Shown here: one piece after another, positions 11,249 through 29,211 of the stretch
Layout of the letters: each line of letters begins with the position of its first letter
Numbering within the stretch: the stretch's first letter is position 1
Assembly (NCBI GenBank): GCA_041946805.1
Contig: JBHGBC010000065.1
Span: forward strand, 1 to 29,211
DNA: 29,211 nt
Direction of reading: 5' to 3'
Origin: a bacterium
GTDB lineage: Bacteria > Hinthialibacterota > Hinthialibacteria > Hinthialibacterales > Hinthialibacteraceae
The notes under the pieces: model-generated
Told to the model about the DNA's origin: nothing
Database searches by the model: none
What the model saw: only the letters and a program-made list of their open reading frames with translations
Made by a program: the position numbers and the translations under genes

Positions 11249-12466
11249 TTACTCCCCCCTCCGCCCCGGATCGTACAGGCTCCATTCGCGGTGGCGCGGA
11301 TCGAAGGCCACGCCCCAGCGGTGTTCGGCCGGCATCCGGGGTGTGTGGGATTGCCGTTGCGCCAGAAAGGCGTCGAGAATGAGCAAGGCGGGTACGGGCG
11401 GCCGGTTCTTGTCCAGCAAAAACGCGTAGAGGCCGAATTGTTCCTCGAAACGCGCGCGGGGGATGGCGTAGCCATTGAGCAAGGTCCATACGCGGTCGAA
11501 CTGGCGCATGATTTCGTCATCGATGGGAATCACCGGCGAATTGTTGTCCTGCCATGCGTGCGGATCGAGGCGCAAACGTTTCTCGAAAGCGCCGGTGAGC
11601 CGCTGAACCAACTCGACTACAAAACGGTTTTCGGCGAACGGGTGTCCCCGGAGACGTTCGTAGGCCATGCGGTTCAGCAGGCCGCCGGGCTTCTCGCGGT
11701 ATGCGAAAGCGGGGCCGTATTGTTCCAGGGAAAAACCGGGCATGGTTTCCGGCGGCGCGTAGTCCCAGGTTCCGTTTTTGAAACGAGGCCAGCGCCAATG
11801 GACGATGCCGCTGTGTTGGGTAGGGATTTCAGGGCCGTAGATTTGCACGTTGGTCATGGGGGAGAGCGTGATGAAATTCTGCCCCGGGCGGAACGCCTCA
11901 TAGTAGGTGATGGGCAGCAGGGTCTGATCGCCGATCCGGCCGAGCACCACGGCGTGAGAGGCGATCCGGTCTTCGTAAATGATCAAGCCTGGGCGGACGT
12001 TTTCGGGATTCAAGGCCACGGGGTACGTGTCGTGATGCAAGGTTCGTGTGCTCACCCAGCCAAACAAATCGTGCAGAAAGGTCACGAAACGCGGATCCTG
12101 GCGCCATTCGGGCCGGGTGGGATGACTGTCCCATTCCCGGCTGAAGTGGCCGGTCCGCCGTCCCGTGGCATCGGTGGCGAGAAAGGGCAACTGATGTTCG
12201 CGGGCGAACACGGCCCGGAGGGTATAGACCAGGTCGGCACAATCAGGACGCAATCCGGTGGGCTTGAGGAAATTCTCATCGACCGCATGCGCGATCCAGA
12301 CGGAGAACGTCTGTTCCCACGTGGCGTTCCAGACCTGGCCGGCGGCCCAGACCTCCGCCCCGGCGGCCCGGGGGAACAGCGCCCCCCCGCATAACAAGAG
12401 GACGCAACCGAGAAGTCCGAGGAGGCGCTCAGTCCGGTTGCGGGTATTGGGCGCGCATGGCGGCAT
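11249..12466 (-). CDS. Secreted hypothetical protein with DCAD motif (405 aa); paralog of 12429..13769
   Basis: AAAGGAG Shine-Dalgarno before ATG 12466; signal peptide ending AAGA; motifs VWAA..WN.TWE, DCADL, DTYPV.LN, PGL..YE..IASHA and HSGIV.W.WP shared with its neighbour. The ORF-track start at 12736 lies inside the upstream gene. Confidence 0.8.
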   Translation of the reverse strand: MPPCAPNTRNRTERLLGLLGCVLLLCGGALFPRAAGAEVWAAGQVWNATWEQTFSVWIAHAVDENFLKPTGLRPDCADLVYTLRAVFAREHQLPFLATDATGRRTGHFSREWDSHPTRPEWRQDPRFVTFLHDLFGWVSTRTLHHDTYPVALNPENVRPGLIIYEDRIASHAVVLGRIGDQTLLPITYYEAFRPGQNFITLSPMTNVQIYGPEIPTQHSGIVHWRWPRFKNGTWDYAPPETMPGFSLEQYGPAFAYREKPGGLLNRMAYERLRGHPFAENRFVVELVQRLTGAFEKRLRLDPHAWQDNNSPVIPIDDEIMRQFDRVWTLLNGYAIPRARFEEQFGLYAFLLDKNRPPVPALLILDAFLAQRQSHTPRMPAEHRWGVAFDPRHREWSLYDPGRRGE

Positions 12467-13769
12467 CGAACACGTCTCCTTTGTCCTGGGCGGAACGGTA
12501 CCACTCGAGGACTTCCGCGGAAGGAAAACGGCCGTTGAAGATCCAATCCTGCCGCATGGCGTCCCACCGCAGCCCCCAGCGTTTTTCGGCGGACACGTAC
12601 GCGTCGGGGGAGATCCAGCGCTGGTCCACGGCGATGAAGACGTAGAACAGATTGACCGGCGGCCAATGGGGCGAGAGGACGAGGGGAATCCGCTCCAGCG
12701 CCGCGAAAAACCGGTTCCGGGGAATATCGTAATCATACAATCCAGCCCATATCTGCTGCATCAGATTAAACAAACGGTTGTCACGCGAGTCGGTATTGTA
12801 GGTGTAATCGAAGGTGGCCGAGCGGAAGCCGGGGCCTTTTTGCCGCAAAAGCGCCGCGGCCTTCTGGACCACCTGCGCCCGGAATTGAATCTCTTGCTGG
12901 AAGAAAGTGACCAGCTTAGGAATGATTTCATCGTGGTTCACTTCGGTGGTATGGGCGGAACCCTTGACCACACGGTTGAGGGCCTTGGCCAATTGGGTGC
13001 GGAACGCGAAGGAGGGATCGTAAATCTCATCGGAATACAAGGGCATCTGCTCATCCGGAATCAACCGCCAGCGGCCGTTCTTTTCGACCGGCCAGTTCCA
13101 TCGCACGATCCCGCTGTGATGGCGGGGGACCTCGGGCGTGTAGATATAGACGTCCAGGGTGGTGGAGCGTTTGAAACGGACGCTGGGGGGGACCGATGCT
13201 TCGAAGAAGACCACGGGAATGATCTGGGCGGGATCGCTCCGGCCGATATAACTGGCATGGCTGGCGATCAGATTTTCATAAACCACCAGGCCGGGCTTCA
13301 CGGTCCGCTGGTTGAGGCCCACGGGATAGGTGTCGTGGGGGAAGGACCGCGTGGTGACGTGGCGGACCAATTCGCTCAGAAACGAGCGAAAGCGGCGGTC
13401 GTTTTGCCACTCGCGGGCGGCGCCTTCGCTGTCCCAGTTGTTCAGATAGTGGCCGATCTTAATCCCGTTGAGGTCGCTGGCCAGGAAGGGAAGTCCGGAA
13501 TTCCGGCAAAAGATGGCGCGCACGACGTAGCAGAGATCGGCGCAGTCCACCGCCAGATGGACGGGCTGCAGAAGATCCACATCCACGGACGTGTTGATCC
13601 ATTGGGCGTAGCGCTCTTCCCACGTTTCATTCCAATCATGGATGGCGGCCCAAACCGCCGCGGGGGAGGGAAGCGGCGCGAGCCAGGACATCATGAGAAA
13701 TAAGCCCAGAAGGAGACCAATCATCCAACCACGCAAAGACCCGTTCTTAGCCTGACCATTCCTGACCAT
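12429..13769 (-). CDS. Secreted hypothetical protein with DCAD motif, possible papain-like/NlpC-P60-type Cys-His enzyme
   Basis: Signal peptide, then AVWAAIHDWNETWEERYAQW, DCADLCYVVRAIF and PGLVVYENLIASHASYIG. Mutual homology with the downstream ORF supports this frame. Confidence 0.8.
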   Translation of the reverse strand: MVRNGQAKNGSLRGWMIGLLLGLFLMMSWLAPLPSPAAVWAAIHDWNETWEERYAQWINTSVDVDLLQPVHLAVDCADLCYVVRAIFCRNSGLPFLASDLNGIKIGHYLNNWDSEGAAREWQNDRRFRSFLSELVRHVTTRSFPHDTYPVGLNQRTVKPGLVVYENLIASHASYIGRSDPAQIIPVVFFEASVPPSVRFKRSTTLDVYIYTPEVPRHHSGIVRWNWPVEKNGRWRLIPDEQMPLYSDEIYDPSFAFRTQLAKALNRVVKGSAHTTEVNHDEIIPKLVTFFQQEIQFRAQVVQKAAALLRQKGPGFRSATFDYTYNTDSRDNRLFNLMQQIWAGLYDYDIPRNRFFAALERIPLVLSPHWPPVNLFYVFIAVDQRWISPDAYVSAEKRWGLRWDAMRQDWIFNGRFPSAEVLEWYRSAQDKGDVFDAAMRAQYPQPD

Positions 13770-14073: not shown

Positions 14074-14294
14074 ATTCTTTCCCCCTCCCAATCTTCTATT
14101 TAACCGCATGACTTGGTTGACCTCTCGTGTCCCGGTGGTTTATGATGAGCCAAGCCTGTGAACCAGACGTCAGGCAGACGCCTCGCGCCGCGAAATGGCT
14201 TCGGCAAGAGATGGGGGGAGTCTCGATCCGAAAAACGCAGAACCGGTTGCACCACTTTTGCACCATATATTTCATCGAGAAAGGATTCAAAAAA

Positions 14295-15149
14295 ATGAGA
14301 CGGCACGGACTGGCGGTGGTTTTCGTATGTATCGGCCTCTGGCTGATACCGGGTTTCCTGACAGCGGCTTTTTCACAAGAATTCGGCCCGGAGGCGCGAA
14401 ATTCGTACGTAGTGAAATTTTTGGATCCAACCGGACCTTTGCCCACGATCGGGGGTGTCTTTGATTCCGGCTGGAAAGCCACGTTCAATGAAAGCACGAA
14501 ATGGTTGATTTATACCGATCCGGAAACCGATCAAGATCCGGTGAATGGCCCCCGGTCCGACGATTTTCATTTTTACGCGGGGATTCTCGATGGCACGCCT
14601 CCCCGCTTGTTCGTGGGAATCAACGGAGTGGGATTCACGCCCAATGTCGGGGCGGACGCGCCCACGGAGAACGACGCGGCGACCTGGTGGGGCAGTTCGT
14701 TGTATGAAATGCAGATCGTGCAAAATTTTGATACAGATCCCCGGAACAAAATCTCCATCGGCTATGACGGCCATTGGTCCGATTTCCAACGGAGTCCGGA
14801 AGTCGGCCCGGCGGACTTCACTCTGACCAACCTGGAAGTGGCCGTGATCGATACGGGGGACGGATTCGCGGCTGAACTCGCCTTCGATCTGGACGAGAAC
14901 GCGTTTCTGACCCTGGATAGTCCGGATCCGGCGACCGGCATAACCTGGCTGCGGGTGATCATCAGCCATCAAGGAAGCGGCGTGCCCTTGGTGGTGTGGC
15001 CCGACGGGGATTTCAACGGCAATGTCGGATATGCCACGCACGGTTCCACGGGGTGGGATCATTTCGGATGGTGGGATGTCACCAGCGCCCGGAGCCAAAA
15101 GGTGAAATACCAGGCGGGAGTGGACGTCTCCCAGTGGGAAATTCATTGA
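14295..15149 (+). CDS. Secreted hypothetical protein (possibly DOMON/CBM9-like) ending in VSQWEIH
   Basis: AAGGA upstream of the ATG; signal peptide MRRHGLAVVFVCIGLWLIPGFLTAAFS; Trp/Asp/Gly-rich mature region. The fold guess is weak. Confidence 0.75.
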   Translation: MRRHGLAVVFVCIGLWLIPGFLTAAFSQEFGPEARNSYVVKFLDPTGPLPTIGGVFDSGWKATFNESTKWLIYTDPETDQDPVNGPRSDDFHFYAGILDGTPPRLFVGINGVGFTPNVGADAPTENDAATWWGSSLYEMQIVQNFDTDPRNKISIGYDGHWSDFQRSPEVGPADFTLTNLEVAVIDTGDGFAAELAFDLDENAFLTLDSPDPATGITWLRVIISHQGSGVPLVVWPDGDFNGNVGYATHGSTGWDHFGWWDVTSARSQKVKYQAGVDVSQWEIH

Positions 15150-15306: not shown

Positions 15307-17046
15307 ATGGTCCGGAAATCGGGATGGTTCGTGGGGCTGATGATGGGATGTGCCATAGCGCTCCATCTGTCCGCGGGGGCGGCCGAAGAAGCCGCCGGGG
15401 CAATGGATCCCAAGGTGGATGAGGTGGTGAAGCAGTTATCGAGTTTCCTCGCTGGATTGAAAAATTATAGCGTGAATGTGGACATCACCGTCCTGGTGGA
15501 GGCCCAAGGCATGAAGCAGGAGATGGTCACCAAGCAGTCGCTGGCGTTGCAGCGGCCGGACAAGATGGCCATGGTTCTGAAGGACGGCATGATGGGCGGC
15601 ACGGTGGTGTCGGATGGGAAGAACCTGTACCGCTACATTCCCATGCTGCAAGCCTACACCGTGGAGGACGCGCCGGAGTCGATCGACGCGCTGTCCTCGG
15701 TGGAGCCCGGCGGGGGGATGGGGATGGCGATGGGGGCGTTCAACACGGCCTTCATCGAGTTCTTGGTCAAGAACGATCCCTACGAATCGTTTTTCAAGGA
15801 AATGAAGGGCGGGCAATACGTGGGAGAGGAAGATCTCGAGGGAACCGCCACTCACCGCGTGCGCCTGAACCAGGAGGAAATGAGCGTCGATTTGTGGATC
15901 GACAAGGGAGACAAACCCCTGGTGCGGAAACTGGTTCCGGACATGTCCAAGATTTTTGAGCGCCTGGGCGGAGCGGCCGCGGGCATGATGAAGGACATGA
16001 AGATGAGCATGGGCATCACCTTGGCGGATTGGAAAACGAACACGGAATTGCCCGCGGACACGTTTGTGTTCACACCTCCCGAGGGCGCGAAGAAAGTTGA
16101 TTCGTTTGAGGCGGCTATGGGGGGGGAAGCCATGAGGGGCGATGCATCCCCCAAATCGGAAACGGATCTCTTGGGCCAGCCCGCGCCCGGGTTTCAATTG
16201 GAATTGCTCAATGGTGAAAATTTTTCCCTGGCGGGCCAGAAAGGCCAGGTAGTGATTTTGGATTTCTGGGCCACGTGGTGCGGCCCCTGCCGCCAAGCCA
16301 TGCCCGTCATGGAAAAAGTCACGTCTTCGTTCAAGGACCAGGGTGTGAAACTGATCGCTGTGAACTTGCAGGAAGATGCGGCCATAATTCAAAAGTTCTT
16401 GAAACAGATGAATCTGCATCCCACCGTGGCCCTGGACCGGGAGGGGAAAGTGGCGGAGCAGTACGGCGTGCAGGTCATCCCCACAACGGTGTTGATCGGC
16501 AAGGACGGCACGGTGCAAGCGGTGCACTTGGGCAATCTGCCCAACCTGAAGGATACCTTGGAATCGGAACTGAAGGCACTGATCAATGGAAAGGCGCTGG
16601 TGGCTGAAAAACAGAGCGTGAAAGCCATACCCCGCAAGGGCATGAGTCAGGTGGCGAGAGCCAAGGCCGACATGCGCGCCTTGCGGAACGCGCTGGAGAT
16701 GTTTTTCATCGATAACGATAAATACCCGGTCCCACTCGAAGGAAGAACGCTGGACCAGGCGGGCCTGAAAGTGGGAGAAGAATCCCAAGCCCGGATCCTC
16801 CGCTTGACCGGGCCGGTGCAATACGTGGACAGCCTTCCGGCCGATCCCTTCGATCCCGAGGACAAACCGTACCGGTATTTCAGTGACGGCAAGTTCTATA
16901 TCCTGGTGTCCAACGGTCCGGATGGGGACGTTGACTTCGACGAGCGGACCTTCAAGGGCGGGAAAATCGACACCCTGCGGGAATTCATCTTCGATCCCGA
17001 GGATGGAGAAACCAGCTCGGGCGATATTATCGTCGTAGGGCCTTGA
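15307..17046 (+). CDS. Secreted DUF2092/LolA-like domain + TlpA-type thioredoxin + C-terminal pseudopilin-head-like domain
   Basis: GAGGTG Shine-Dalgarno; signal peptide; QRPDK...VSDGK...LWID..DKP...FVFTPPEGAKKV; VVILDFWATWCGPC; C-terminal VARAKADMRALRNALEMFFIDNDKYP...LTGPVQY...DPF...SNGPDG...SSGDII. Confidence 0.85.
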   Translation: MVRKSGWFVGLMMGCAIALHLSAGAAEEAAGAMDPKVDEVVKQLSSFLAGLKNYSVNVDITVLVEAQGMKQEMVTKQSLALQRPDKMAMVLKDGMMGGTVVSDGKNLYRYIPMLQAYTVEDAPESIDALSSVEPGGGMGMAMGAFNTAFIEFLVKNDPYESFFKEMKGGQYVGEEDLEGTATHRVRLNQEEMSVDLWIDKGDKPLVRKLVPDMSKIFERLGGAAAGMMKDMKMSMGITLADWKTNTELPADTFVFTPPEGAKKVDSFEAAMGGEAMRGDASPKSETDLLGQPAPGFQLELLNGENFSLAGQKGQVVILDFWATWCGPCRQAMPVMEKVTSSFKDQGVKLIAVNLQEDAAIIQKFLKQMNLHPTVALDREGKVAEQYGVQVIPTTVLIGKDGTVQAVHLGNLPNLKDTLESELKALINGKALVAEKQSVKAIPRKGMSQVARAKADMRALRNALEMFFIDNDKYPVPLEGRTLDQAGLKVGEESQARILRLTGPVQYVDSLPADPFDPEDKPYRYFSDGKFYILVSNGPDGDVDFDERTFKGGKIDTLREFIFDPEDGETSSGDIIVVGP

Positions 17047-24434: not shown

Positions 24435-25061
24435 ATGAAATCCACATCCCCGCCCCGCGCGTTTACCTTGATTGAACTCCTGATCGTGGTCGCGATCATC
24501 GGCATTTTGGCGGCCATCGCCGTTCCCAATTTCCTGAACGCCCAGGTCCGGGCCAAAATCGGCCGCGTCCGGTCGGATCTCTACGCCTTCGCGGCCGCCA
24601 TGGAAGCCTATCACATCGACTGCAATGAATACCCGTGGGGCAGCTACCCCAACAACCAGGGAGGCTACACCACGGGCAGTTTGTTTGGCCTGACCACCCC
24701 CATCGCGTACATGTCGTCGGTGGGACAATTGGACCCCTTCGGAGAAGGGGAATGGGTGGCCCACGGCGTGACCAACGAGCAGTATTACGTGTACGTGAAT
24801 TACAACGGCTTCTGGGCGCGCAATGACAGTTCGGCCCAGGGCTATTTCAACAGCCATTCCTTGTTCAAGGGCTACGGCATGACCAGCTTCGGCCCCGACC
24901 GGCTCGACACCGGCGGGGTGTGGACTCCCTTGCGGTATAAAATCGGCAGTATCGCGGTGGGAAATCTGTCTTTATACGCGTCGTCCAATGGCCTCATCAG
25001 TTACGGGGACATCTGCCGCTATGGCGGGGAAGCGCAGGCCAACACCGCCGGGGGGGAATAA
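24435..25061 (+). CDS. Prepilin-type N-terminal cleavage/methylation domain protein (GspG/type IV pilin-like)
   Basis: RA|FTLIELLIVVAIIGILAAIAVPNF class III signal; head domain LTTPIAY...DPF...SFGPD...SNGLISYGDI. Confidence 0.92.
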   Translation: MKSTSPPRAFTLIELLIVVAIIGILAAIAVPNFLNAQVRAKIGRVRSDLYAFAAAMEAYHIDCNEYPWGSYPNNQGGYTTGSLFGLTTPIAYMSSVGQLDPFGEGEWVAHGVTNEQYYVYVNYNGFWARNDSSAQGYFNSHSLFKGYGMTSFGPDRLDTGGVWTPLRYKIGSIAVGNLSLYASSNGLISYGDICRYGGEAQANTAGGE

Positions 25062-25120
25062 CATCATGCGGACAGGATTTGCGTATCCCGAAATCCTCTA
25101 CAACCAAAAAAGGCATCTCC

Positions 25121-25816
25121 ATGAACTACACCTACGATGATATCGCCAAGATGATCGATCATTCCCTGCTCAATCCCGCGTTGACGGAACGGGATCTGGA
25201 GGAGGGCTGCCGGCTGGCCCTGCGGTACAACACCGCCAGTGTCTGCATCCTGCCCTACTACCTGAAGCGCTGCGCCGGAATCCTGGCGGGCAGCACGGTC
25301 AAGGCCAGCACTACCATTGGTTTCCCTCACGGGGGACACACCACCGCGGTCAAACGTGCTGAAGCGGAACAGGCGCTCGATGACGGAGGCGAGGAACTGG
25401 ATATGGTCATCAACATCAGCAAGGCCCTCAGCGGCGATTGGAATTATGTCGGCAACGAAATCGAGGAACTAACCAGCCTGATCCATGCCCGGGGACAGAA
25501 AATCAAGGTCATCTTCGAAAACTGCTATCTGAATGACAGCCAGAAGATCAAACTGTGTGAAATTTGCGGCGCGATCGGCGTGGATTGGGTGAAGACCAGC
25601 ACCGGCTACGGCGGCGGCGGGGCCACGTTCGAGGATTTGAAACTCATGCGCTTGCATTCGCCGGACCCCGTGCAGGTGAAGGCCGCGGGCGGCGTGCGCG
25701 ATCTCGACAAACTGCTGGAAGTGCGCGCCCTGGGCGTATCCCGCGTCGGCGCGAGCCGCACCCAAGACATCCTGGACGAATGCCAACGAAGGTTGGGGAT
25801 GGGACTCGGAGGTTGA
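25121..25816 (+). CDS. deoC: Deoxyribose-phosphate aldolase
   Basis: IDHSLLNP, TIGFPHG, ELDMVINI, KVIFENCYL, VKTSTG, VKAAGGVR and RVGAS motifs. Confidence 0.95.
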   Translation: MNYTYDDIAKMIDHSLLNPALTERDLEEGCRLALRYNTASVCILPYYLKRCAGILAGSTVKASTTIGFPHGGHTTAVKRAEAEQALDDGGEELDMVINISKALSGDWNYVGNEIEELTSLIHARGQKIKVIFENCYLNDSQKIKLCEICGAIGVDWVKTSTGYGGGGATFEDLKLMRLHSPDPVQVKAAGGVRDLDKLLEVRALGVSRVGASRTQDILDECQRRLGMGLGG

Positions 25817-25864
25817 GTTATCGCGAAGCGCGTAATCAACCAATACGAGAACTTCTCCTTTCCC

Positions 25865-25927
25865 TTCCTCATGGATACACTTCCCACCCCGCCGCGCGGG
25901 AGGGCAGATGGCTGTCGAAGACGTAGA
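25865..25927. repeat. 63-bp direct repeat, copy 1 (3' end of gene B2)
   Basis: 62/63 identical to 27152-27214. Confidence 0.95.
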
Positions 25928-26858
25928 TTTTCCGGTCGATCCCCGCGATGTACAGTTTTTGATCATCGGGCGAAAAGCAGGCGGCCGTCATGATGTTCTT
26001 TGCGCCGATATCGTACCGCTGCAGATCGGCCCCCGTCTCGGCGTCCACCAGGGTGGGCATCCCGTCCCGCCCGGTCGCCAGCCAGCGCTCGTCCGAGGTG
26101 AAGGTGACATCGCCATGCGCCGGCCAGAGCTCGAGGGTAGTTGTGTTAAGAAGATAGCAGAGATGTTCGTAATGCCAATCAGGAATCCGGTCCGTGGCTT
26201 CATGATACTCCGCATAGCGCGCGATCAAGAAACGGTCGGATGGGGAAAAGCGGATTTCTATTTCTTCCGGGGCTTCTATAATATAATTGATTGGCAGATT
26301 TATTGATATTATTTTTCCCCCATTATTTGTTTCCCAAATTCCAAAGGATTTTTGTATAGCTACATTTCCAACATCCCATAGTGCACAGGCAATCATTTTT
26401 TCATTGAACGAAAGCACTGGCAATTTTAATTCCAATCCGGAGTTAGATACATTTTCTAATTGGATATTTTTCAAAGCGTTTCGAGCAAGATCAATTTGTC
26501 TTATATCACCGGAACTATAACTCGATAACTCGTATTTATCTTCCTGAATTAGAAGAAGAAATATTTTTGTTTTTGAATCGAATTTCCATAGACTATGACT
26601 TTCAAGTGTTGTGGTCCATGCGGTTGGTATAACACCTTGACTGCCGAGAGAGACTACATTATAACCTAGATATGATACAAATATCTTATATTCTTCCGCC
26701 GTTAGTTTAAAGATAGACGGATTGCCTGGTATCTGTATCGAAGGAGTCCATTGAGGCTTGGGAGCTTCGATAACACTGGTTTCATTATAAACATTGATAG
26801 GAAGTCCAGTTAGACAAATAAAATATAAAATGAATATCAGAATATTTACACTATTCAT
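25869..26858 (-). CDS. Secreted WD40/beta-propeller-like protein B2
   Basis: AAAGGA Shine-Dalgarno; hydrophobic N-terminus; IRFSPSDRFL, VTFTSDERWLAT and ACFSPDDQKLYIAG repeats; ends VFDSHLPSRAAGWEVYP. Confidence 0.85.
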   Translation of the reverse strand: MNSVNILIFILYFICLTGLPINVYNETSVIEAPKPQWTPSIQIPGNPSIFKLTAEEYKIFVSYLGYNVVSLGSQGVIPTAWTTTLESHSLWKFDSKTKIFLLLIQEDKYELSSYSSGDIRQIDLARNALKNIQLENVSNSGLELKLPVLSFNEKMIACALWDVGNVAIQKSFGIWETNNGGKIISINLPINYIIEAPEEIEIRFSPSDRFLIARYAEYHEATDRIPDWHYEHLCYLLNTTTLELWPAHGDVTFTSDERWLATGRDGMPTLVDAETGADLQRYDIGAKNIMTAACFSPDDQKLYIAGIDRKIYVFDSHLPSRAAGWEVYP

Positions 26859-26910
26859 TGTAGTGAATCCTTTCGTAGAGGCAATTATTTACGAATATCA
26901 CATATTCATA

Positions 26911-27159
26911 TTATGGGGAAACAACAAACCGCAATGATTGGCGATAAATATCATGATCAATTAGTTGGGCTGTTGTTGAACTTGTAGGATGCCATTTAAC
27001 ACGCTGATAATATAATTTATTGTATTCGCAAGTTTGACCACTGTATCCGCCATAATCAGGAGGAATCCCATCGGTGACCCATCCCACTTATGTAAGATTT
27101 TCATAGGTATAAGAATCATGGACTCCATCATTGATTGTGCCAGCTTCAATTTTCCTCAT
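26911..27159 (-). pseudogene. Orphan C-terminal fragment A' homologous to the 28237..29211 gene; contains one in-frame stop
   Basis: Manual translation MRKIEAGTINDGVHDSYTYENLT*VGWVTDGIPPDYGGYSGQTCEYNKLYYQRVKWHPTSSTTAQLIDHDIYRQSLRFVVSP* aligns with YTYEYPTIIG..GGYSGHTTENNVLYYQK..LLDADIFRVPIRF of gene A. Internal TAA at 27090-27088. Confidence 0.85.
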
Positions 27160-27214
27160 GGATACACCTCCCACCCCGCCGCGCGGGAGGGCAGATGGCT
27201 GTCGAAGACGTAGA
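27152..27214. repeat. 63-bp direct repeat, copy 2 (3' end of gene B1)
   Basis: 62/63 identical to 25865-25927. Confidence 0.95.
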
Positions 27215-28175
27215 GTTGGTTATCTTCACAACCGATATACAGTTTCTGATTATCGGGAGAAAACGCGGCGGATATCATCCTCTTTCCAGTATCGTACCGC
27301 CTCAGAATGATCCCTGTATGAGCTTCCACCAAAGCAGGGAAACCATCTAATTCGGTCACATAATATTGGCTATCCGATGTAAACGCTACGTCCTTGTCGG
27401 CATCCCTCACAAAATGAGTTACGGTATCAAGAAGAAAGACGCGTAAAAACAATCTATATTCTTGGGGGGGCACATCATACGAATCGTCATATTTACCGAT
27501 GTCTTGTGGCCAGATATAACGTTCACCCCGTACCCAAAAAAATTGTTCATCAGGGGAAAATCGAATATCAAACGCATATGAAAACCATCCCCATCTTATA
27601 TCCAACGGTGTATATTTGTCTTCCGGTAATCCCATGGAAGATGCAGTCAGAATCAATGTTCCATCCTTCACGTCCCATAAGGAAGGTATCTCCCAGAAGG
27701 AGGTGATATAATCCGGAGGCGCTGCATTTTCCAGATGGCGAATCCCTCCGATGAATCGGCCCGAAGGCGATAACAACACTTTGTTATGATTATTCCCTCC
27801 GTCCAAAGTAATATTCGAGTCACCGATTTGAATTATTTTTTGAACCGTTTGAATTTTGAGATAATCAGAAAAAAAAGTGCTGTCCTTATGTAGAAAGTTC
27901 GTCTCGGAGGTAAGTAGATTCAATTCGACGGAATCACAATGATCAATAAAATGACCATTTGAATCCCTGTAATAGTATGGAATATATATTTTGAGCAGGT
28001 CTTTCGTATAGAGTCTAAGAAAAAATATTTGACGTGAATATCCCGGATTCCCGGGCCAGTAATCGTCTTCATTGGGTATATCAAGATTAAGAGTGTATGA
28101 TGGCAATGAAACCGGGACCACAAGATGTAAAGAGATGTATATCAAATAAATAATGCCTGATTTCATGAAAAACAT
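27156..28175 (-). CDS. Secreted WD40/beta-propeller-like protein B1 (paralog of B2)
   Basis: AGGAG Shine-Dalgarno; hydrophobic N-terminus; LSPSGRFI, LWDV, IRFSPDEQF, VAFTSDSQY and AAFSPDNQKLYIG; identical tail VFDSHLPSRAAGWEVYP. Confidence 0.85.
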   Translation of the reverse strand: MFFMKSGIIYLIYISLHLVVPVSLPSYTLNLDIPNEDDYWPGNPGYSRQIFFLRLYTKDLLKIYIPYYYRDSNGHFIDHCDSVELNLLTSETNFLHKDSTFFSDYLKIQTVQKIIQIGDSNITLDGGNNHNKVLLSPSGRFIGGIRHLENAAPPDYITSFWEIPSLWDVKDGTLILTASSMGLPEDKYTPLDIRWGWFSYAFDIRFSPDEQFFWVRGERYIWPQDIGKYDDSYDVPPQEYRLFLRVFLLDTVTHFVRDADKDVAFTSDSQYYVTELDGFPALVEAHTGIILRRYDTGKRMISAAFSPDNQKLYIGCEDNQLYVFDSHLPSRAAGWEVYP

Positions 28176-28236
28176 GATAAATCGCTCCTACGGAATTGTC
28201 GTTTTAAAATACATATCCTTCATCGACCTGGTATGT

Positions 28237-29211
28237 TTATTGCGTTGCAAAACGAATGGGCACACGAAAAATGTCTGCATCCAATAAACTATTATTGATA
28301 TTCCGTTTGTCTTTTTGATAATACAACACGTTATTCTCAGTAGTATGTCCGCTATATCCTCCTTCAAGAGGATCCAAACCTATTATGGTTGGATATTCAT
28401 ACGTATAATGATATCCCCCACCCGCATCATCGCCATCCATTTTTACGACAATAAAATCACTCCACTCTAGTAGATTGGCACTGGTATGGATGACAATCGC
28501 TGCAGGCTTTTCAAAATTAGGATCAATCCCTCCTTTGCATACCAATACAACTTGATGAGGATAACTTTTATCTAAAAAAGAATTATAACTTATTTTTGGA
28601 AAAGCCCGCCATAATCGTGCGCGGTCGACTTCCGTCCCCATGAATCCATTATTATCACATTTGTAATTCCATAGTATCGACTCATCGCCTCCCAATCCCG
28701 GTTGACTCCAATTTTGAATATCTGTAGTGGCTGCAACAATTTGCCTGTATTTAACCCAGGGATTATTATTTGCCGAATAATATTGGCTGTCAACAATTGA
28801 ACGTGTAGCGCGAGCGATCGAAATGCCCGCCCTTGTGTGATAATATCCATCAGGAGCGGTATATGTTGCGCTATAGATTATTAAGGCTTGTGTATGATAT
28901 AGCATGTAATAATAATCATCTGTAGCAATGATAGATGGTCCACCAACCCCATATTGGCCAGTTGACATTAATATTTCATCCTCCGCAACTGAATAGGTGA
29001 TTATTGGATTTCCAGAGGTATGATTTAACTTTTGAAAGGAACGGCCAAAATCCGAAGTCCCGGATGTTGAACGTGCATATCCTATGCGTAGATATACACT
29101 ATCATAAATATTTGGTGTAATATCATTTTGTGATTTATCTTCAGTATGAACAAATGCATTCAAAATGGGTGTATTAGGCCATCCACTATACGCGCTTGTA
29201 TAAACCGAAGC
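28237..29211 (-). CDS. Gene A: hypothetical protein, probable beta-propeller (glycoside-hydrolase-like); 5' end lies outside the window
   Basis: Frame is open to the window edge (ASVYTSAYSGWPNTPILNAFVHTED...). Blade-like motifs RIGYARS..DFGRSF, YYYMLYH, GISIARA, TSANLLEWSD and YEYPTIIG. The fold is inferred. Confidence 0.75.
   Translation of the reverse strand, partial: ASVYTSAYSGWPNTPILNAFVHTEDKSQNDITPNIYDSVYLRIGYARSTSGTSDFGRSFQKLNHTSGNPIITYSVAEDEILMSTGQYGVGGPSIIATDDYYYMLYHTQALIIYSATYTAPDGYYHTRAGISIARATRSIVDSQYYSANNNPWVKYRQIVAATTDIQNWSQPGLGGDESILWNYKCDNNGFMGTEVDRARLWRAFPKISYNSFLDKSYPHQVVLVCKGGIDPNFEKPAAIVIHTSANLLEWSDFIVVKMDGDDAGGGYHYTYEYPTIIGLDPLEGGYSGHTTENNVLYYQKDKRNINNSLLDADIFRVPIRFATQ

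Follow-up and report, generated by a model that had tools for sequence, protein, structure and literature searches.

A recombining two-gene array of a predicted propeller enzyme and its putative exported partners in the Hinthialibacterota

Introduction

The mycobacterial toxin EatA, a GH183 endo-D-arabinanase propeller, is blocked only by the cognate protein, EatI, encoded directly downstream (10.64898/2026.03.26.714487). In the type VII immunity arrays of esaG and tipC, a polymorphic gene is followed by several partner genes that differ from one another; these come and go by recombination at conserved gene-end blocks, and toxin-free strains can carry orphan partners (PMC9484751). In MafB, CdiA and Rhs loci the partner also lies downstream, there are several islands per genome and units of a remnant plus a partner follow downstream, and MafB joins a leader and a lineage-restricted conserved N-domain to a variable C-part (PMC4436062). 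Here we describe an array that shares features with each of these, located at one end of a 29,211-nucleotide contig from a member of the Hinthialibacterota (GenBank assembly GCA_041946805.1, contig JBHGBC010000065.1; G000:C278 below). This contig in its entirety is referred to as the window. The array consists of gene A, predicted to encode an exported propeller, a partner gene B1, a fragment of A designated A′ and a second partner gene, B2. It belongs to a real, undescribed, recombining two-gene system, of which searches of the openly accessible literature found no description.

A resembles EatA in its predicted five-bladed GH183-like propeller behind a carrier N-domain, and B resembles EatI in being a predicted exported partner encoded directly downstream. 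Cognate-only protection has been shown for EatA and EatI and is an expectation here. EatA has a type VII helical bundle, lies downstream of tap genes and belongs to DUF4185, whereas A is predicted to have a hydrophobic leader and an all-beta, beta-sandwich N-domain, is preceded by a conserved non-coding block with no tap genes and is not a DUF4185 member by profile. EatI is a 16-kDa beta-sandwich lipoprotein whereas B is a WD40-like propeller of 330-380 aa, and arrays with handles derived from the tail of A, as found here, are not described in the covered portions of the EatA report. In contrast to the esaG and tipC arrays, one of the two handles here consists of a piece of A that was kept, and the modules occupy many chromosomal sites. 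The partners are predicted to be exported, whereas EsaG is cytoplasmic. The orphan in MafB, CdiA and Rhs loci is a whole toxin domain and their partners are smaller, whereas the remnants here are 51-186 codons of a ~440-residue propeller, the partners are large and the variable C-parts fused to the N-domain of A all have one fold. The GH183/DUF4185 enzyme EndoMA1 (PDB 8hhv, 8ic1; PMC10509167) is the best structural match of A, with no sequence-level membership.

Organization of the array

All four parts are on the minus strand, in the order A, B1, A′, B2. The features, with the two copies of a repeat and a hairpin, are:

28237-29211, minus strand: 3′ part of A, 324 codons of about 694, open to the contig end
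27156-28175, minus strand: B1, 339 aa, after a 61 bp gap from A, whose cognate partner it is taken to be
26911-27159, minus strand: A′ fragment, 82 codons, of which codon 24 is an in-frame TAA, its ATG overlapping the B1 stop
27055-27159, minus strand: A′ head, starting at the B1 stop codon; in-frame stop in the window copy only
27000-27054, minus strand: conserved block of the last blade of A, likely crossover site; near-identity to the A gene of locus L068 begins at 27054
26911-26999, minus strand: A′ tail, allele-specific, travelling with B2; one base off the 3′ end of the long A of L068
25869-26858, minus strand: B2, 329 aa, after a 52 bp gap from A′
27152-27217, no strand assigned: 3′ handle copy 1, a 66-nt repeat covering the end of B1 and start of A′, 97% identical to copy 2
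25865-25930, no strand assigned: 3′ handle copy 2, at the island edge, with similar DNA on 7 other contigs of genome G000
25808-25841, no strand assigned: REP-like hairpin directly behind B2

The 5′ half of A is missing because the window is the whole contig. A′ aligns to A with 41% identity over 76 columns (E 1e-12; score 115, with 59 the best of 1000 shuffles). B1 and B2 are 47% identical over their last ~139 residues and have no significant match upstream of these, and the 66-nt repeat spans their 3′ ends. The island is AT-rich, with a GC content of 0.34-0.39 in A and A′ and towards the 5′ ends of the B genes, except for the B 3′ ends (0.50-0.60); the value for the genome is 0.58. A sequence-only reading of this DNA had noted the same layout, both gaps, the ATGA overlap, the in-frame stop, the homology of A′ to A and the very different N-terminal two-thirds and conserved C-termini of B1 and B2, all of which were recovered here.

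Of 24 sequencing runs listed, 4 were compared with the window, and runs with a small share were not used as evidence. The raw-read run X24 yielded 2 reads, too few to be informative. Contigs of run X1 tile positions 24500-29182 with zero differing letters in the main pieces, including the A′ stop, and one 1-base gap between pieces at 28402, although this run may be the source of the window and hence is not independent. Its depth over A-B1 is roughly double that over B2, which is taken as a lead only. The RNA run X18 has contigs over B1 and B2, which is not proof of transcription. The hairpin, which we take to be REP-like, lies behind 4 of 9 terminal B genes (window, C93, C281 and C52) versus 34 of 2367 (1.4%) other open reading frame (ORF) ends, a comparison made with a pattern picked post hoc from the sites themselves.

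Exchange of A-tail and B units

L068, a locus from another metagenome, has a long open A (575 codons, 5′ end cut), and the 3′ end of this gene, the spacer and the next B are almost identical to the window from 27054 through B2. Upstream of 27054, the window A′ resembles the head of the third cassette in locus L066 and not the L068 A. In runs X2 and X18, both from other studies, a loose end or joint is present at base 27054 with the same switch, and in X2 the A′ head that comes after B1 is the other one. A′ is thus a chimera assembled by recombination, with a head like those of A′ in other arrays, a tail like that of a different full A gene and the crossover near 27054. The variable part of B2 is 97% identical at the amino acid level to the B directly behind A in L068 and 27% identical to B1, and the A′ tail and B2 by their sequences constitute a cognate pair of the L068 type. 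The suggestion in the sequence-only reading that A′-B2 is a displaced earlier allele thus stands as regards the pairing but not the displacement in place, the head and tail of A′ having been recombined.

The same reading had likened the layout, with A′ as an orphan C-terminal module, to that of Rhs, CdiA and MafB loci. A′ is limited to the last ~80 of ~440 propeller residues, the last blade only, and is therefore not an alternative catalytic domain; its likely role is that of a handle by which partner genes are captured. The five A′ copies found at the genus level all start at the stop codon of B, and four are open, the window copy alone having a stop. The ratio of nonsynonymous to synonymous substitution rates (dN/dS) of A′ is 0.54 relative to L068 and 0.14 relative to L066, but head and tail are mixed in these values, which are not evidence of decay.

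In a quick tree of the B variable part, obtained with long-branch warnings, B1 is placed with the B1 of G001, a genome of the same genus, and B2 with the B genes of L068 and C217. Given this placement and the identity to L068 from 27054 onward, B2 was not copied from B1, and local tandem duplication is ruled out as its origin. Retention of A′ for a promoter of B also found no support, as a promoter scan of the island returned 17 sites versus 10.8 +/- 3.5 expected, with no clear internal promoter within A′. The A-tail plus B unit, as judged from these alignments, is exchanged through the conserved last-blade block of A and the conserved B 3′ end, and the exchange is seen without a direction.

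The number and alleles of the cassettes differ among relatives, which hold one to three. G001 and locus L067 have A-B1-A′-B but with a different A′ allele and second B, a third cassette is present in L066, and B1 lies behind the same A allele in all three. L069 and L023 are one site, occupied either by a full A and one B or by an internally deleted A and another B. The G001/L067 array adjoins a gene whose counterpart in G000 has another, single pair next to it, and G001 has no island beside another flanking gene, gene order differing between the two species; from their sequences we take these genes to be purD-like and deoC-like, respectively. Remnant-plus-partner units with other breakpoints are present in G009 (186 codons), G008 (51 codons) and G020 (53 codons, twice); four different breakpoints are documented in four genera. 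G017 and G014 stack B genes without remnants. Locus L073 is a repeat of L021 and was left uncounted.

Partner linkage and asymmetric loss

Each of the 29 intact A loci whose neighbour is visible adjoins an open partner gene, which is downstream in 26 cases and divergent in three, and no intact A without a partner was found among these loci. The three divergent partners are all in G021, and the linkage therefore survives rearrangement. The partners include 27 with a hydrophobic leader and 15 with the C-terminal tail described below; four are cut by contig ends. Of 22 tested, 9 are B, 10 are other WD40/PD40-type propellers (one weak), 2 have the FGE-sulfatase fold and one has no family. The count leaves out loci with the neighbour beyond the contig end (G014:C72, G018:C540, G002:C512 and G023:C155), the split type and the 1955-residue fusion introduced below, and five matches that were not fetched.

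Loss is biased towards A. In 9 loci, 8 of 8 in one set plus G018:C273, A is broken or internally deleted and an open partner is kept. Lone intact B genes are present in G007 (96% complete) and G011 (93%), and in G008 (86%) two B genes surround the 51-codon remnant, none of these genomes having an A-type propeller; G005, also without one, has a broken B. These four are incomplete genomes. Two or three partners of one kind are present at 13 loci. As kin are not independent, the counts of linkage and loss are patterns rather than tests. With A and B homologs linked elsewhere, a locus that varies among relatives and a significant A′ to A alignment, none of the findings named beforehand as arguing against a variable A-B system was made.

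Predicted structure of A

A full-length relative of A, P0001 (694 aa), is 96% identical to the window A, and its model (pLDDT 78, pTM 0.83) predicts a hydrophobic leader and an all-beta domain (beta-sandwich) that extends to around residue 220 and is connected by a loose linker to a five-bladed propeller. The best fold match of the propeller is GH183 EndoMA1 (PDB 8hhv; Z 26.0, rmsd 4.0, 306 aligned residues, 11% identity), which also ranked first in a second fold search. The next matches are other five-bladed glycoside-active enzymes (Z <= 24.7), and EatA/EatI chains are not among the fold matches listed. The search used the whole A model, by which the N-domain was barely probed. A has no Pfam or NCBIfam family at cut-off and no family in PADLOC, and neither A nor P0001-P0004 match PF13810 at its cut-off. 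Behind A there is a large unnamed propeller family of 324 cluster representatives (E <= 0.001; best 150 of 324 listed). Of 31 distant propeller relatives that were aligned, 7 match DUF4185 (PF13810) at E <= 0.01, those scored singly falling below cut-off, and a language-model search also points the propeller family of A toward DUF4185.

Acidic residues 278, 320, 394, 395 and 447 are conserved in 17-19 of 19 A homologs, with E394-D395 invariant within the motif H-x-E-D. EndoMA1 depends on three acids, the catalytic residues Asp33, Asp51 and Glu243 (PMC10509167). E278 could be in register with Asp33, as judged from the terminal positions of the fold alignment (247 to 3) and not from residue-level superposition. 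The A gene of L066 is 90-100% identical to those of L068 and L069 in the N-part and then 25-78% in sliding windows, and GC content steps from 0.57 in the N-part to 0.39 in the C-part, consistent with A being composed of a conserved, host-like N-part and a variable, low-GC C-part.

The N-domain resembles carbohydrate-binding modules of the NPCBM type (score 0.88, a lead only). It is also encoded as a separate gene of ~250 residues that ends propeller-partner operons in G004, G006, G010 and G017. In these split-type loci (L098, L093, L092 and L094, respectively), a propeller protein with a different N-region, CBM96-like in L098, precedes the partner and the lone N-domain, which suggests that the N-domain acts in trans. 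One CBM96-bearing N-region of the split type is joined to the propeller in P0048 but, in G007:C8, to a C-part unrelated to it. At the latter site (L096:2303-9150) this gene is interrupted by a stop and followed by two exported proteins and a lone N-domain; the C-part has a motif that we presume to be that of barrel-type glycosidases. At L040:7933-13800 (G010:C8), a 1955-aa protein consists of the N-domain of A and a propeller, followed by a peptidase C13-like stretch.

Predicted structure of B and the W-x-x-Y tail

B has a hydrophobic leader, variable N-terminal two-thirds and a conserved WD40-like last third that ends in a W-x-x-Y tail. The B1 model (pTM 0.76) matches seven-bladed propellers (5yzv: Z 14.7, rmsd 4.5, 223 aligned residues), whereas WD40 is detected in B as a single repeat below cut-off, and B looks like a partial WD40-type propeller. 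These models agree with the variable system of a propeller-fold A and secreted WD40-like B proposed from the letters alone. In genome G000, and with crude ORF and leader rules, the tail is present on 90 of 778 leader-bearing non-membrane ORFs versus 17 of 1891 leaderless ORFs, and W-x-x-Y/F occurs in none of 19 A proteins and in all window-type B. The tail is likely a lineage sorting signal. Its fuller form, T/S-x-V-x-x-W-x-L-Y, is spread over the genome, including the B genes and 14127-15149 in the window. With dN/dS of 0.19 for B1 and 0.21 for B2, and 0.15-0.39 across A and B overall, the substitution patterns indicate that B1 and B2 are under purifying selection.

Distribution and neighbouring features

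The phylum set searched consisted of 35 genomes of 4-8 Mb from one class. The A profile matches 19 of these, all in one order (15 of 19, 2 of 2 and 1 of 4 by family, and 0 of 9 in the other three families), with some matches being to the N-domain alone. For the B profile there are matches in 14 of 35 genomes, which all belong to the family of the window genome. G000 itself has A at C278, C217, C153 and C248, a tail of the gene at C281, a start at C130 and a remnant at C294, together with 10 B copies, most at contig ends. Upstream of A, in 9 sequences from 6 distinct sites, there is an AT-rich block of ~190 bp in which a sigma-70-like pair can be made out by eye. As this block is conserved at sites with different flanks, promoter, A and B constitute a self-contained module that recurs across many sites; an accompanying transposase was not found at the sites examined.

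A low-GC island, L106 (G000:C309:6800-14470), encodes a TPR protein, a 436-aa exported protein without a family, two paralogs of 315 and 316 aa without a family and a lone B, together with what is presumably a sigma-54-type regulator; this island may be a second conflict locus. At the ends of C128 and C141 in G000, a B 3′ end lies beside the 3′ end of a gene that we take to be FtsK-like and that is a fragment in C128. Elsewhere in the window, neighbouring minus-strand genes at 11249-13769 encode exported proteins of 495 and 446 aa that look like paralogs, and a 579-aa exported protein, in which a thioredoxin-like domain is presumably joined to a pseudopilin-like C-part, is encoded at 15307-17046.

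Proposed function of the array

By analogy with EatA/EatI and the esaG arrays, we consider it probable that A is a glycanase effector and B its cognate surface inhibitor, which would likely make the pair a weapon and its antidote, not described before and directed against the coats of closely related cells. A would be an exported enzyme that cuts a cell-coat sugar common to close relatives, and B an allele-matched inhibitor that binds A and is held at the surface of the producer, presumably by its W-x-x-Y tail. Strains swap B genes and line up additional ones, likely through homologous recombination in which the conserved last blade of A and the conserved B 3′ end act as handles. A′ would be a landing pad left by an old deletion joint, behind which a new A-tail plus B unit was copied in, and the extra B genes would protect against the A alleles of neighbours. 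More tentatively, and with somewhat less than an even chance in our estimate, the loci constitute an order-restricted conflict system in which new envelope glycanases with a new carrier domain, fused or in trans, are blocked by tail-displayed beta-propeller inhibitors, with the last blade a reusable landing pad for collecting the antidotes of rivals without their weapons.

Several observations weigh against a glycanase effector and its inhibitor. The best solved-sequence matches of the A profile are GH130-like phosphorylases, and, with no Pfam or NCBIfam family at cut-off either, A may have one of several chemistries. The broad propeller family is also found alone, for example at G000:C307, and the fused-type N-domain is paired, in the 35 genomes, with one propeller family only and with no unrelated toxin domains. 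A Sec-exported A of 75 kDa would further need a route to a rival; the type VI sheath PF05943, the one component tested, has no match in G000 (96.8% complete). B, at 330-380 aa, exceeds typical immunity proteins, described as small (PMC4436062). Three A remnants have no partner (G000:C294, G014:C121 and G014:C144). Pairing also appears loose, with A 96% and B1 only 77% identical between G000 and G001 (synonymous divergence, dS, 0.13 vs 0.70). No A-B pair has a dN/dS above 1, and a distance test over 12 pairs, disturbed by poor pairwise alignments, gave no clear sign of A-B co-variation (rho 0.06, p 0.33). Part of the stops may also be assembly errors.

An alternative that we judge unlikely is that A is a glycosidase for foraging or for remodelling of the envelope, which B would anchor at the surface or activate as a subunit, with the variation resulting from phage or predator pressure on the exposed complex. 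B would tether A because B has the C-terminal tail and A does not, a distribution that, with the enrichment of the tail on leader-bearing ORFs, the incomplete propeller modelled for B and the description of the phylum as a degrader of complex polysaccharides (PMC9324843), fits an anchor. Without an enzyme to hold, however, an anchor would serve no purpose, and partners are retained, duplicated and captured even where A is broken or absent; unrelated scaffolds act as the partner, and the module is accompanied neither by transporter genes nor by other genes of catabolism.

It is rather improbable that A and B provide non-lethal, lock-and-key kin recognition, in which A would bind sugar or B without cutting and an extra B would widen self, as modelled on IdsD and IdsE of Proteus. 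Cognate pairing, allele exchange and orphan partners would be equally expected, and an N-domain of the NPCBM type would be in keeping with binding, but the five acidic positions are conserved like an active site and the nearest folds are all glycoside-active enzymes. That the array is neutral debris of accidental recombination, with B copies that have no function tied to A, is very improbable and already weakened, for although conserved repeats ease such recombination, broken copies of both A and B occur and the window A′ has an in-frame stop, the dN/dS values of A and B, the bias of loss towards A and the remnant-plus-partner units with four breakpoints in four genera all argue otherwise.

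Implications

Antibacterial effectors that cut envelope glycans beyond peptidoglycan are rare, EatA being the one found in print. If A is a glycanase effector held in check by B, it would be the second such effector, from a phylum without cultured members, and would bring with it a glycoside-hydrolase-like family that is not yet classified, a carrier domain that is new and inhibitors of the WD40 type; it would also assign a function to bacterial WD40 proteins. The array provides a defined set of pairs, cognate as well as non-cognate, for in vitro work that needs no culture of the host, and A would then serve as a probe for the sugar on the surface of these bacteria from sludge and digesters. 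How partner genes get collected can be read from the mapped crossover.

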